A stretch of DNA of 64,000 bases, taken from positions 1,056,001 through 1,120,000 of the forward strand of contig CAVSDR010000003.1 in assembly GCA_963726745.1 (NCBI GenBank). The letters are read 5' to 3'. Below, piece after piece: positions 58,111 through 64,000 of the stretch. The DNA is from an uncultured Verrucomicrobiae bacterium. Lineage in GTDB: Bacteria > Verrucomicrobiota > Verrucomicrobiia > Chthoniobacterales > UBA10450. Within the stretch, counting starts at the first letter, position 1; each line of letters starts with the position of its first letter. A program made the position numbers and the translations under genes. Below the pieces are notes generated by a model. That model was not told the DNA's origin, ran no database searches, and saw only the letters and a list, made by a program, of their open reading frames with translations.

Positions 58111-58127
58111 GCCGCTTCCTTTCCTGT

Positions 58128-58162
58128 TTCCTTTAACGTGATCCTGCGAGGTCGCGAAGGAA
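58128..58162 (+). promoter_or_regulatory. PyrR-binding RNA hairpin overlapping the pyrR ribosome-binding site
   Basis: TTCCTTTAA-cgtg-ATCCTGCGAGGT-cgcg-AAGGAA resembles the PyrR site (CUUUAA bulge plus UCCNGNGAGG loop). Confidence 0.85.
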
Positions 58163-58166
58163 GAAC

Positions 58167-58731
58167 ATGTCCGAAAACACCCCACCTCTCTCCCCCGCCG
58201 GCACGCCCGTGCTCGACGCCGCCGCCATTCGCGGCGCGCTCCGCCGCCTGGCGCACGAGATCATCGAGCGCAATCCCGACCTCGCATCCGTGGTCCTCGC
58301 CGGCGTTCCTTCGCGCGGCGTGGAAGTGGCGCGGCGGCTGGCGGATTTCATCGAGGAATTTGCCGGCAAGTCTGGTCGAGACCGGCGTGCTCGACGTCTC
58401 GATGCATCGCGACGATGTCGGGCAACGCGCCGACCTCCCGATGGTCCAGGCGTCCCATCTGCCGGTGCCGCTCGACGGGCGCACGGTCATCATCGTGGAC
58501 GACGTTTTCTACACCGGGCGCACCGCGCGCGCCGCGATGGACGCGATCGGCGGCTTCGGCCGGCCGGCGCGCATCCAGCTCGCGGTCCTGGTCGATCGCG
58601 GGCATCGCGAGCTGCCGATCCGCGCAGATTATGTCGGCAAAAATTTGCCCACCGCCGCGGGCGAGCGGGTGCGCCTTCGCCTAACGAACGTCGACCAGGA
58701 ACCGGACGCGGTTTGGCTGTTGAAAGAATGA
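58167..58731 (+). CDS. pyrR: Pyrimidine operon regulator / UPRTase PyrR; apparent frameshift near 58370
   Basis: [11 protein letters not shown]...GVPSRG then [38 protein letters not shown]. Confidence 0.93.
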
Positions 58732-60947: not shown

Positions 60948-61027
60948 AAAAAAAAGCGCGACCATCGCTGGTCGCGCTGCGGAAGCTAAGGAGATGTTAG
61001 TTTTAGTTGGTGACTCCCAGTTCGCAG
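60948..61027 (-). ncRNA. Candidate sigma54-dependent small RNA, copy 1
   Basis: CUGCGAACUGGGAGUCACCAACUAAAACUAACAUCUCCUUAGCUUCCGCAGCGCGACCA-GCGA-UGGUCGCGCUUUUUUUU; near-identical to copy 2; own promoter and terminator. Confidence 0.75.
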
Positions 61028-61037
61028 GTTCTTCTTT

Positions 61038-61053
61038 AGCAATGGCGGTGCCA
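61038..61053 (-). promoter_or_regulatory. Sigma54 -24/-12 promoter of sRNA copy 1
   Basis: Minus strand TGGCAC-CGCCA-TTGCT, a full consensus match. Confidence 0.85.
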
Positions 61054-61117
61054 CGGCCGCGGCTGCGGGAATCTTTTTCGATAAAACTGTCAACGCCCTC
61101 AGCTTCGATTCCTTGGT

Positions 61118-61297
61118 ATGGACTCAAGCAATAAAGACAAAGCCGAAGGCAAGTTCGACCAGGCCGCCGGCGCGGTGAAGCAGAAGGCCGGTGAGCTGAC
61201 CGGCAACAAGGAGCTCGAAGCCAAAGGCGCCGCGCAGAATGTGGCCGGCCACGTCGAGGAGAAGACGGGCGACGTGAAGAAAGTCTTCGGCAAATAA
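61118..61297 (+). CDS. CsbD family general stress protein
   Basis: 59 aa, below the track cut-off: MDSSNKDKAEGKFDQAAGAVKQKAGELTGNKELEAKGAAQNVAGHVEEKTGDVKKVFGK. Confidence 0.9.
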   Translation: MDSSNKDKAEGKFDQAAGAVKQKAGELTGNKELEAKGAAQNVAGHVEEKTGDVKKVFGK

Positions 61298-61309
61298 CCG
61301 ATAAAATAA

Positions 61310-61343
61310 GAAGCGCTGCGTCCCATCCGGAACGCAGCGCTTC
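61310..61343. terminator. Hairpin between convergent genes, likely bidirectional terminator
   Basis: gaagcgctgcgt...acgcagcgcttc inverted repeat. Confidence 0.7.
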
Positions 61344-61368
61344 GCTTCTCTAGCAGCGGAGCGTGGGT

Positions 61369-62613
61369 CTACTCCTCGCCGCCGTCGTCGTCGCTTCCAC
61401 CGTCATCGCCGCCGTCGTCACCGCCATCATCATCCCCACCCTCGTCGTCACTGCCGCCATCATCGTCGTCTTCGCCGTCTCCGTCGAAGTCCTGGCCGTC
61501 ATCGTCCGAATCGTCCTCCATGCTCTCCTCGTCCGCGCTGTCGTCTGATTCCACGGATTCATCGCTGTCCTCTTCGACCGCCACTTCTTCCTGCTCTTCC
61601 GCGCTCATTTCGAAGGATTCGGTCTCGGCAAAGCTTTCCTCCGCTTCCATTTCCTCGGTGCTGATCTCCTCGGAGATTTCGATGTCCTCGCTTACTTCGA
61701 GTTCCACCGCGGTTTCCGTTTCGCTCCACTCATAGCTTTCCTCGGTGGTGAACTCGGTGGAAGTCGACTCCCACTCGCTGGTGTAAGTGGAAACTTCGAT
61801 CCACTCGCTGCGGTCGGCGCTGTTGACGTAATAATCGTAGCCGTAAAGCATGCCCTCGATCTCATCGATGAGGTAAAGCGTGGAAGTAAGTGCCGCCACG
61901 GTGAAGGGCGCGTCCACGATCCGACGCGCATCGTGCTTCATTTTCTTGATGCCCTTCAGCAGCGCCTTGTCCTTGCCCGCTTTCTTTTCCATCTGGTCGA
62001 GCTTCGCGATCAGCGCCTTTTGCTGCGCCTTCAGCTTCTCAAACTCGGCTTTTTCCTTGGCGCTTAACTCGCCGCCTTTTTTCCGGCGCGCTGCTTCCTT
62101 CGAGTAATCCGTCCGCAGGACGGCGAGCGCGTGGCCCATCTTCTTGCTCGCCTCGACCACCTTCTTGTTCTTCGAATCGGTCAGCTCCCAGGCAATGGCC
62201 ATTTGCTTGTCCGCGGTGCGCGCGTCGCTGATCCCGAGGAAGAAATCGTTGCTCTTTGCCTCGAGGCCTTTTTGCGCGCGATCAATCGCCTTGGAAACCT
62301 TTTGCACCGACTTCCAGAACGGCTTGTTCTTCGCCGTTTTCGGATCGAGCCCCTGGTCGGCGCGGGCTTCTTTGATCATAAGAGCCAGCGCTTTGTTCGC
62401 CTTGGTCAGGAGTTCCCTGGCATTCGCTTTCTTGCCGCTGAGCTTCTTCTCCTTCTTCCCTTTCTTGTGCGTCTTTTTCGCTTCGCCGCTCTTGGCTTTC
62501 GCTTCGGCGGCCGCGCCGTGGGCGGTTAGGATAAGGCTGCGTTCCATTCCGAACCCGATGAGCACGGAGCACAGGGCGAGTCGGACCAATAAATTCGATT
62601 TTCGTTTGAGCAT
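61369..62613 (-). CDS. Hypothetical exported protein: Lys-rich helical N-half and long Asp/Glu-rich tail
   Basis: ATG at 62613; hydrophobic N-terminal segment; two similar helical blocks; tail ends in GGDD repeats. Confidence 0.8.
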   Translation of the reverse strand: MLKRKSNLLVRLALCSVLIGFGMERSLILTAHGAAAEAKAKSGEAKKTHKKGKKEKKLSGKKANARELLTKANKALALMIKEARADQGLDPKTAKNKPFWKSVQKVSKAIDRAQKGLEAKSNDFFLGISDARTADKQMAIAWELTDSKNKKVVEASKKMGHALAVLRTDYSKEAARRKKGGELSAKEKAEFEKLKAQQKALIAKLDQMEKKAGKDKALLKGIKKMKHDARRIVDAPFTVAALTSTLYLIDEIEGMLYGYDYYVNSADRSEWIEVSTYTSEWESTSTEFTTEESYEWSETETAVELEVSEDIEISEEISTEEMEAEESFAETESFEMSAEEQEEVAVEEDSDESVESDDSADEESMEDDSDDDGQDFDGDGEDDDDGGSDDEGGDDDGGDDGGDDGGSDDDGGEE

Positions 62614-62678
62614 GCGCGGCCCACCGTAGCAGACGGGACGCGGTTTACTGCATAATTCGCCGGGCGATGCTCCCGGGC

Positions 62679-62759
62679 AAAAAATAAGCGCGACCATCAC
62701 TGGTCGCGCTGCGGAAGCTAAGGAGATAAGTTAGATAGTTGGTGACTCCCAGTTCGCAG
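62679..62759 (-). ncRNA. Candidate sigma54-dependent small RNA, copy 2
   Basis: CUGCGAACUGGGAGUCACCAACUAUCUAACUUAUCUCCUUAGCUUCCGCAGCGCGACCA-GUGA-UGGUCGCGCUUAUUUUUU. Confidence 0.75.
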
Positions 62760-62769
62760 CTCTTCTTAT

Positions 62770-62785
62770 AGCAGCCACGGTGCCA
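62770..62785 (-). promoter_or_regulatory. Sigma54 -24/-12 promoter of sRNA copy 2
   Basis: Minus strand TGGCAC-CGTGG-CTGCT; same 12-nt distance to the conserved RNA start as in copy 1. Confidence 0.8.
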
Positions 62786-62809: not shown

Positions 62810-64000
62810 CTACGTCTTGCCGGCAAAACTTTCCCACTCGGCGGTCACGCGTTCGAGTTCGGCCGCCACCCCGAGAAGCTCGCGGTTTAACTCCATCGCG
62901 TTTCCTCCGGCGTCGTAGGTTTCCGGCTTTTCCAACTGGGCGGTTAGTTCTTTCTGCCGGCCCTCCAGGGAAAGGATATGCATCTCGAGCTCGCGCGCTT
63001 TTTGTTCGTGCTCGCGCCTGGCTTTCGCTTCGGCCTTGCGCTGCTCGGCCTCGGCCCGGCGCAGTTGTTTCACTTCGCGCAGGCTCAGGTTTTCCGTCGA
63101 AGCGCTCGCCGCGGGTGCTTTCGGCGCGGTCGTCGGTTGCGCATTGCTCAAGGTCGTTCCGCTGGTCAGCGCGGCGCGCGCGGAAGTGGCGCGGGATTTA
63201 TCGAGGTAATAATCGTAGTCGCCCGCGTAGGGCGTGAGCTGGCCGGCGCTGATGTGCAGGACGCTCTTCGCGACGGCGCGGATGAAATAAACGTCGTGGC
63301 TGATGAAAATGAGCGTGCCTTCGTATTGCGCGAGCGCGCCGACGAGGGCGTCGATGCTGCCGATGTCGAGGTGCGTCGTCGGCTCGTCCATCAAGAGGAG
63401 GTTCGGCGGATCCAGCAGCAACTTCACCAGGGCGAGGCGCGTCTTTTCGCCGCCGCTGAGGACGGCGGTCGTTTTGAAAACGTCGTCTCCGCGGAAAAGG
63501 AAGGAGCCGAGGACGGTGCGCGCGGTTTGTTCCGAGACCGGGTTCGGCATGTCGCGCGCGGTGTCGAGCACGGTCATCATCGGCTGCAGCATCTCCACGC
63601 GGTGCTGCGCGAAGTAGCCGATCTTGACGTTGTGCCCGGGCTCGCGCGTCCCGCTTTGCACCGGGAGAACGCCGGCGAGGAGCTTGAGCAAAGTCGATTT
63701 GCCGGCGCCATTCGGGCCGACGAGGACGGTGCGCTGTCCGCGTTCAGCCTCGAAGTCTAACGACTCGTAAACCACGTGCTCGCCGTAGGCGTGGCGCACG
63801 TTCTCGAGCTTGATCACGCGATGCCCGCTGCGCGGCGGCTGCGGGAAGTGAAAGTGAACCGTCTTCTCGCGCGAGACCGGCGCCTCGATCTTCTCCATCC
63901 GGTCGATTTGCTTCAGTTTGCTTTGCGCCTGCGACGCTTTGCTTGCCTTCGCGCGGAACCGATCGGCGAAGGCCTGGAGCGATTGGATTTCCTTCTGCTG
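62810..64000 (-). CDS. ABC-F family ATPase (5' part outside window)
   Basis: DRFRAKASKASQAQSKLKQI linker, GPNGAGKSTLLK, LSGGEKTRL, MDEPTTHLD, ISHD; C-terminal coiled coil. Confidence 0.93.
   Translation of the reverse strand, partial: QQKEIQSLQAFADRFRAKASKASQAQSKLKQIDRMEKIEAPVSREKTVHFHFPQPPRSGHRVIKLENVRHAYGEHVVYESLDFEAERGQRTVLVGPNGAGKSTLLKLLAGVLPVQSGTREPGHNVKIGYFAQHRVEMLQPMMTVLDTARDMPNPVSEQTARTVLGSFLFRGDDVFKTTAVLSGGEKTRLALVKLLLDPPNLLLMDEPTTHLDIGSIDALVGALAQYEGTLIFISHDVYFIRAVAKSVLHISAGQLTPYAGDYDYYLDKSRATSARAALTSGTTLSNAQPTTAPKAPAASASTENLSLREVKQLRRAEAEQRKAEAKARREHEQKARELEMHILSLEGRQKELTAQLEKPETYDAGGNAMELNRELLGVAAELERVTAEWESFAGKT

Follow-up and report, generated by a model that had tools for sequence, protein, structure and literature searches.

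The stretch analyzed here (the window) comprises 64,000 nucleotides of contig CAVSDR010000003.1 from an uncultured bacterium of the order Chthoniobacterales. Towards its end it carries two units of about 80 nt, each headed by a sigma-54 site and both on the minus strand, just where an initial annotation of the sequence had placed them (Table 1). Comparison across genomes indicates that the RNA predicted from these units is a real, previously uncatalogued sigma-54-promoted small RNA (sRNA) family of Chthoniobacterales. The predicted transcription starts, 61027 for copy 1 and 62759 for copy 2, lie 12 nt past the C of the -12 element. As the annotation had observed, the two copies differ inside the RNA only in the big loop, one base of the tetraloop and the U tract. 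Its statement that identity begins exactly at +1 did not hold, as the copies also agree over 5 nt ahead of the -24 box, 7 nt of the interval from -12 to +1, and 5 nt past the U tract. Both copies fold as a bulged hairpin followed by a terminator, and folding z-scores on the minus strand were -3.6 and -3.8 (0 of 200 shuffles equally stable), with weaker values of -1.9 and -2.6 on the plus strand; the 5' helix and the terminator helix compete for two bases at their junction. The two copies first reported are both present, but the genome total is three rather than two: a further copy, diverged and headed by a perfect promoter of its own, is found elsewhere in the host genome (G000:C2:245182-245296), and 3 of the 19 occurrences of the strict sigma-54 motif in this 3.4-Mb genome head the RNA.

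Table 1. Features of the sRNA locus and its neighbors, numbered from the first nucleotide of the window
Feature	Position	Strand	Basis or remark
Sigma-54 -24/-12 promoter of copy 1	61038..61053	-	10/10 consensus positions; function judged from fixed-distance conservation in relatives
Small RNA copy 1, predicted, ~80 nt	60948..61027	-	90.8 bits with model R1 (copy 1 is an R1 seed); fold
5' bulged hairpin of copy 1: outer helix, pyrimidine bulge on 3' arm, inner helix	60979..61025	-	
20-nt unpaired A/C/U-rich loop of copy 1	60994..61013	-	Unpaired probability at least 0.9 at 20/20 positions
Intrinsic terminator of copy 1: 10-bp hairpin and U tract	60948..60978	-	Hairpin 60978-60955; covariation
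Sigma-54 -24/-12 promoter of copy 2	62770..62785	-	10/10 consensus positions; 25 nt beyond the ABC-F stop codon
Small RNA copy 2, predicted	62679..62759	-	86.1 bits with R1 (seed); synteny: commonest position in the genus, after ABC-F
20-nt unpaired loop of copy 2	62726..62745	-	Unpaired probability at least 0.9
Intrinsic terminator of copy 2	62679..62710	-	10-bp hairpin 62710-62687 and U tract
csbD-like gene, 59 aa	61118..61297	+	PF05532, E = 4e-15; neighbor, functional link not implied; convergent with the RNA in many relatives
414-aa gene with acidic tail, between the copies	61369..62613	-	Neighbor; beside the RNA in a few relatives
ABC-F ATPase gene, 3' part	62810..64000	-	Upstream neighbor; upstream of the RNA in most copies of the genus

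Range of the family and conservation of its promoter

Two covariance models were used, R1 built from 24 RNA sequences with the promoter excluded and R2 with the promoter included. R1 matched 88 of 150 genomes of the host's family and 25 of its 36 genera, with one to four matches per genome, and R2 matched 89 of the 150. By hand count, 33 of 90 positive genomes carried two to four matches, some of the extra ones weak. The search for further copies that the annotation had suggested therefore returned both the third copy in the host and matches throughout the family. With R2, presence tracked genera, from nearly complete (g44, 13/13; g34, 12/13; g1, 12/14) to few or none (g25, 3/13; g27, 0/13; g4, 0/5). 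Full copies with perfect promoters were also found in sister families of the order (4 of 16 genomes in f8 and 1 of 6 in f5). In the class and phylum samples of 150 genomes, matches outside the family were only weak (38 bits or less), and those beyond the order were bare terminators where inspected (nine in the promoter test set described below, and two of seven in another set). A stricter sequence pattern retrieved 81 metagenome stretches, of which 80 were scanned and 75 matched the model. With a looser pattern, eight among the 80 genome records listed were confirmed by the model, their titles naming Chthoniobacterales (four), Verrucomicrobiae (two) or Verrucomicrobiota (two), and these records may overlap with the genomes scanned above; this genome-wide pattern sets no bound on the range of the RNA. 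The tallies include four positive unpublished genomes (G001, G035, G063, G182), and the comparisons of promoter and synteny within the genus include loci of G001, G008, G030 and G035. Unpublished genomes were excluded from alignments A1-A4, from both models, and from the promoter, loop, covariation, bulge, open reading frame (ORF) and neighbor counts, so that no conclusion depends on them.

Comparison with Rfam 15, likewise suggested at the outset, gave no family at gathering threshold: there were no matches in the 64-kb window, and in eight loci of relatives the best score was 27.1 bits against a threshold of 43. The best scores, to MmgR/SuhB (RF00519), ncS025, ncS54 and a Betaproteobacteria toxic sRNA, were 18-27 bits against thresholds of 41-50 and were driven by the terminator. 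A literature search found no regulatory sRNA for Chthoniobacterales, nor an RNA of this kind in Verrucomicrobia; supplements of structured-RNA screens could hold the family. The available part of a survey of sigma-54 regulons (PMC12316311) is without any sRNA terms.

Promoter conservation was measured on 137 model matches, comprising the 24 seeds, 9 weak matches from outside the family and 104 non-seed matches within it, three of which first came from a BLAST search that contained the promoter. A sigma-54 site scoring 9-10 of 10 lay 9-16 nt upstream of 97 of the 104 non-seed matches, compared with 0 of the 9 out-of-family matches and 0 of 542 control windows, and 92 of the 97 sites fell 10-13 nt from model position 1. 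The promoter was retained with co-directional (68 loci) and divergent (51 loci) upstream genes alike; 37 promoters begin within 60 nt of a stop codon. The host encodes rpoN and six full activators. As rpoN is near-universal (145 of 151 genomes), its co-occurrence with the RNA is uninformative.

Fold and covariation of the RNA

In an alignment of 67 non-redundant sequences made without reference to structure, 92.1% of cells were paired and 65 double changes were counted, compared with 15.6 in shuffles (0 of 500 reached this value), although relatedness among the sequences inflates the count. By tree parsimony, a 5'-helix pair alternating U-A/C-G underwent about 8 coupled changes, and two terminator pairs underwent 16 and 9; the suggested check for covariation thus gave covariation in both helices. 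The top three covariation scores belong to terminator pairs, while the 5' pair ranks 16th, under several subfamily artifacts. In all 104 sequences tested, the 5' and 3' arms paired with each other. A per-sequence search that maximized pairing gave the 3' arm a bulge of 1-2 nt in 103 of 118 distinct sequences, and the pair flanking this bulge switches among A-U (61), C-G (30) and G-C (17). Four subfamilies, 78-93 nt long, adopt the same predicted fold of two hairpins. RNAalifold with default settings and 24 sequences returned the terminator alone, a consequence of register shifts in the 5' helix; under ribosum scoring, both hairpins were returned for the 118 sequences and for each of the four subfamilies.

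The annotation had also argued from a GNRA tetraloop kept between the two copies. It is indeed kept there, but the argument weakens across the family, where the cap is absent in 35 of 118 copies; as a candidate for a generic terminator cap, CA-GNRA-UG was found in 6 of 13 non-member matches, a model-biased sample, compared with 1 of 20 strict terminators in the host genome. As the annotation had stated, no ORF is shared: an AUG-initiated ORF of at least seven codons occurs in just 5 of 118 copies, and a small peptide gene was rejected on this count. A riboswitch or leader was likewise rejected, the downstream gene being co-directional in only 24 of 115 loci and drawn there from 20 unrelated families. 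Promoter conservation and covariation together argue for the selection on RNA that had been proposed, acting on a multicopy sigma-54-promoted sRNA family. Each unit is very probably a free-standing gene for a noncoding RNA of 80-93 nt, made by sigma-54 polymerase and intrinsically terminated.

Candidate mechanisms and their rivals

Hfq was detected in 0 of 151 family genomes, and no CsrA, RapZ, cold-shock-domain or TROVE gene was detected in the host genome (94.7% complete). RRM proteins were present in 151 of 151 family genomes, and the host has three RRM genes together with KhpA/B, which the available part of one source describes as global RNA binders where Hfq is lacking (10.64898/2026.10.12.757534). 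Shine-Dalgarno-like words precede 10.2% of 1,089 host genes at author-called starts, compared with 8.5% of control windows, and the tail of the host 16S rRNA is intact despite this scarcity. In the part of the source available, a value of 10 is given for Spartobacteria, which we read as the percentage of genes with a Shine-Dalgarno sequence (PMC10783764). The anti-Shine-Dalgarno mechanism put forward in the annotation is not upheld: CUCCUU occurs in 6 of 118 copies, on a paired arm, in a host that hardly uses Shine-Dalgarno sequences, and a looser anti-Shine-Dalgarno word, found in 46 of 118 copies, is likewise on the paired arm. Within this host context, the standard modes of sRNA action are mostly closed.

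Across 104 loops, the length is 16-39 nt and the composition 42% A, 26% C, 25% U and 8% G, and past the first 3 nt no column-wise conserved run was found, so there is no family-wide seed. The word CU[AUG]A occurs at least twice in 47% of loops compared with 7% of shuffles. In the host genome, the region just ahead of start codons is enriched in loop 4-mers (0.29 log2) but not in their reverse complements (0.03), and its strongest G-free stretches resemble the loop itself. A conserved bulged stem that presents a variable strand of fixed composition suggests recognition by a protein. The reading that we tentatively prefer, at slightly less than even confidence, is that the RNA is a sigma-54-driven decoy or ligand for an RNA-binding protein that binds A/C-rich leaders; of the two mechanisms initially proposed, base pairing and titration of an RNA-binding protein, titration is the likelier. 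Firing of a sigma-54 activator would lead one to four gene copies to make an RNA acting in trans, whose bulged hairpin, as covariation and folding support, would expose a single-stranded, G-poor, A/C/U-rich loop. This loop resembles the A/C-rich stretches ahead of start codons in a host where Shine-Dalgarno sequences are scarce, and the RNA could draw a candidate protein (RRM, KH or ribosomal protein S1) off mRNA leaders, whose translation or decay would change as a result. An unlikely extension is that such a leader-displaying decoy titrates a leader-reading factor (S1, RRM or KH) and so re-tunes many exported proteins together, with an activator that may act from solution, as the 110-bp promoter-RNA-terminator cassette appears to work in unrelated contexts without a nearby enhancer.

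Several observations weigh against the protein decoy. No protein partner was identified, and genera lacking the RNA have RRM genes just as often; as these genes are near-universal, their co-occurrence with the RNA is uninformative. Shuffled loops give the same leader enrichment (0.30), so that the likeness of loop and leader reflects base composition only, and the related genomes behind the motif counts are not independent. The loop is well conserved within subfamilies, type B especially, as a seed would be, and the target scans described below cover one genome, author-called start codons and windows of -60 to +30, and may miss real targets. No shared word, palindrome or Gibbs motif was found within 200 nt upstream that could serve as an activator site. 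Finally, CrcZ has five A-rich regions according to the available part of PMC9730152, and a single 20-nt loop is a modest sponge by comparison.

Most trans-acting sRNAs of this size act by base pairing, and the main rival, which we consider appreciably less probable, is accordingly an Hfq-independent sigma-54 sRNA whose loop pairs with G/U-rich stretches of mRNA (e.g., early coding regions of membrane or secreted proteins), with targets specific to each subfamily. Besides its conservation within subfamilies, the loop has a short word common at the stem-loop junction, and Hfq-less hosts do have multicopy sRNAs that pair, such as FopS (PMC11697453) and CJnc230 (PMC11187230), as described in the available parts of those sources. 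The best loop duplex among 3,137 start regions, however, was -19.5 kcal/mol, within the -16.7 to -22.0 kcal/mol spanned by 10 shuffles, and the pairing seed that the annotation had proposed for the loop is so far not supported by any target better than those of shuffled loops. Host leaders are G-poor in the same sense as the loop, which therefore cannot pair with them. The lack of a family-wide seed and the failure of the anti-Shine-Dalgarno version also count against pairing, and a site in the csbD leader complementary to the 3' arm of the RNA is confined to the host, 1 of 17 loci. It is highly improbable that the loop instead acts as a sponge for a G/U-rich sRNA repressing A/C-rich leaders, in the way that FopS-type RNAs repress start regions. 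The loop does have the composition of the leaders that such an RNA would target, but 446 terminator-linked intergenic regions yielded no partner pairing better than with shuffled loops, and the sole candidate, a G/U-rich 3' untranslated region (UTR), is not kept in 27 other loci.

Position could instead point to a cis element, either one that terminates the upstream gene or structures its 3' UTR, or an antisense RNA to the convergent gene. In 91 of 115 loci the next gene downstream is convergent, often within 100 nt, and of the 68 co-directional upstream genes 37 stop no more than 60 nt from the promoter. We regard a cis element as improbable: the promoter is kept at the 51 loci with a divergent upstream gene, whole promoter-RNA-terminator units are duplicated, and the downstream neighbors span 50 families (30 convergent, 20 co-directional), so that the bias towards convergence largely reflects a few inherited loci. 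A mobile or repeated element, such as a miniature inverted-repeat transposable element (MITE) or repetitive extragenic palindrome (REP), or an integration landmark without RNA function, might explain the many unrelated contexts of type B copies and the occurrence of tandem or near-tandem duplicates; MITE/REP copies had been named in the annotation as one alternative. Such an element is largely refuted and hardly credible, given one to four matches per genome, a strand-specific promoter and U tract, and synteny kept across genera. Across 119 loci there was no target-site duplication (mean longest flank repeat 4.40, compared with 4.36 for random pairs), and no RNA match was found in viral contigs, phages or plasmids.

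The annotation had likened the units to Qrr and CrcZ. With Hfq in none of the 151 genomes, the analogy holds for control logic and fails for molecular parts. Qrr RNAs are under sigma-54 control and pair in an Hfq-dependent manner via a conserved seed, whereas here there is neither Hfq nor a family-wide seed. CsrB/RsmZ RNAs carry repeated GGA loops and act with CsrA in the host, and bacterial Y RNA goes with a Ro60/TROVE protein; here, by contrast, the single GGA sits in a stem, and neither CsrA nor a TROVE protein was found in the host genome. Nor does the RNA resemble 6S RNA, which is about 185 nt with a central bubble and in single copy, and whose gene lies elsewhere in the host (G000, C4:179365-179546). 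The remaining comparisons rest on the available parts of the cited sources. Qrr1-5 of Vibrio are multicopy, as here (PMC3730234). CrcZ/CrcY of Pseudomonas are RpoN-dependent, exist in at least two copies and have unpaired A-rich regions mimicking mRNA sites, a logic much like that proposed for the RNA described here, but CrcZ is an Hfq ligand with five A-rich regions and a CbrB site (PMC9730152). The RNA in the present host has a single A/C-rich loop, in which about half of the copies repeat short words, and its upstream DNA showed no conserved activator site. In Myxococcus and Cystobacter, Pxr also combines a sigma-54 promoter, tandem paralogs, an Hfq-less host and restriction to one lineage, but has three stem-loops, is processed and adjoins the activator gene nla19 (PMC5568312). 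Here there are two hairpins, and no activator gene was found among 32 neighbor representatives scanned, of 50 clusters with at least two members. GlmY of Enterobacteriaceae is, like our proposal, a sigma-54-driven, Hfq-independent protein decoy, but needs RapZ, GlmZ and GlrK/GlrR (PMC4152352), and RapZ was not found in the host genome. FopS of Bacteroides, with RbpB, is multicopy, short and terminator-ended in a host with RRM proteins; unlike the RNA here, whose 5' end is paired and whose loop has the same sense as leaders, it pairs near start codons through a single-stranded 5' seed and uses a housekeeping sigma factor (PMC11697453). MmgR/SuhB (RF00519) and the other best-scoring Rfam families (ncS025, ncS54 and the Betaproteobacteria toxic sRNA) have comparable length and a GC-rich terminator, but MmgR has an anti-Shine-Dalgarno motif in its loop and needs Hfq (PMC7143759), whereas here CUCCUU is rare and paired. 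The RNA has no Rfam match at threshold to CrcZ/CrcY, Pxr or GlmY. We infer that the RNA may work as CrcZ, GlmY or Pxr does in control logic, with other parts.

Multicopy sigma-54 sRNAs are an already known pattern, which limits the surprise. Chthoniobacterales include very abundant soil bacteria. The family offers a defined, covarying RNA of known promoter type in a host that lacks the usual RNA chaperones and is sparing in its use of Shine-Dalgarno sequences, and an 80-nt bait makes it testable which protein handles riboregulation in Verrucomicrobia.

Neighboring genes and other observations

On the minus strand, the order in the window is the ABC-F gene, copy 2, the 414-aa gene, csbD (opposite strand), copy 1 and the end of pyrC (opposite strand). 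The usual order in the genus is ABC-F, RNA and convergent csbD; as copy 2 occupies this common position, copy 1 is probably a local duplicate. The 414-aa protein (no Pfam or NCBIfam match) is predicted to be exported; it is basic over its N-terminal half and ends in a long tail of Asp, Glu and Gly. By eye, the csbD genes of most relatives are preceded by a CAC-rich box and, after about 16 nt, a sequence like GCGTAT/CGAATC that ends a few bases before the start codon (window 61075-61117), possibly an extracytoplasmic function (ECF)-type promoter giving a near-leaderless mRNA. Of 33 type B loci, 9 have a Lys/Gln-rich ORF of 44-45 aa immediately upstream of the RNA (e.g., L109:1296-1430, plus strand); this ORF has no Pfam or NCBIfam match. 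A Gibbs motif tried as an upstream enhancer was rejected, being the start of an inherited small ORF.

Other sigma-54 sites were also found. One gene, of 60 aa and without a Pfam hit over threshold (G000:C2:358466-358648, minus strand; L455), occurs in 143 of 151 family genomes. All 28 of its loci that were read (30 fetched, two unpublished excluded) carry a perfect sigma-54 site, and by this conservation it is an unnamed core gene of the sigma-54 regulon. In the host genome, sigma-54-like sites precede pilin-like and exported-protein-like genes (named by eye), and one activator presumably resembles PrsR. At three further places (L366:1500-1632, plus strand; L371:1527-1631, minus strand; G000:C3:212871-212959, minus strand), sigma-54 sites are followed by other short hairpin-terminator units, one of them an RNA copy with a replaced 3' half and the other two possible sigma-54 sRNAs of unrelated kind.

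An unnamed winged-helix family of Verrucomicrobia (L088:869-1192, minus strand; G000:C2:186165-186482 and C3:581030-581350) was present in 145 of 151 genomes as two paralog classes. Its structural model (predicted local distance difference test [pLDDT] 90) is PadR-like (best Z 11.7, root mean square deviation 2.6 over 95 residues). By hand count, about 19 genomes have a member of one class no more than 7 kb from an RNA copy, probably reflecting old synteny; many type B copies have such a gene nearby. As a candidate partner of the RNA, this protein was rejected, as it also occurs in genera without the RNA and its fold is that of DNA-binding regulators. Elsewhere in the window, a weak match to a PyrR-binding site (58126-58191, plus strand; 27.5 bits against a threshold of 54) precedes pyrR-pyrB-pyrC, and pyrR is apparently split across two frames near 58167-58731.

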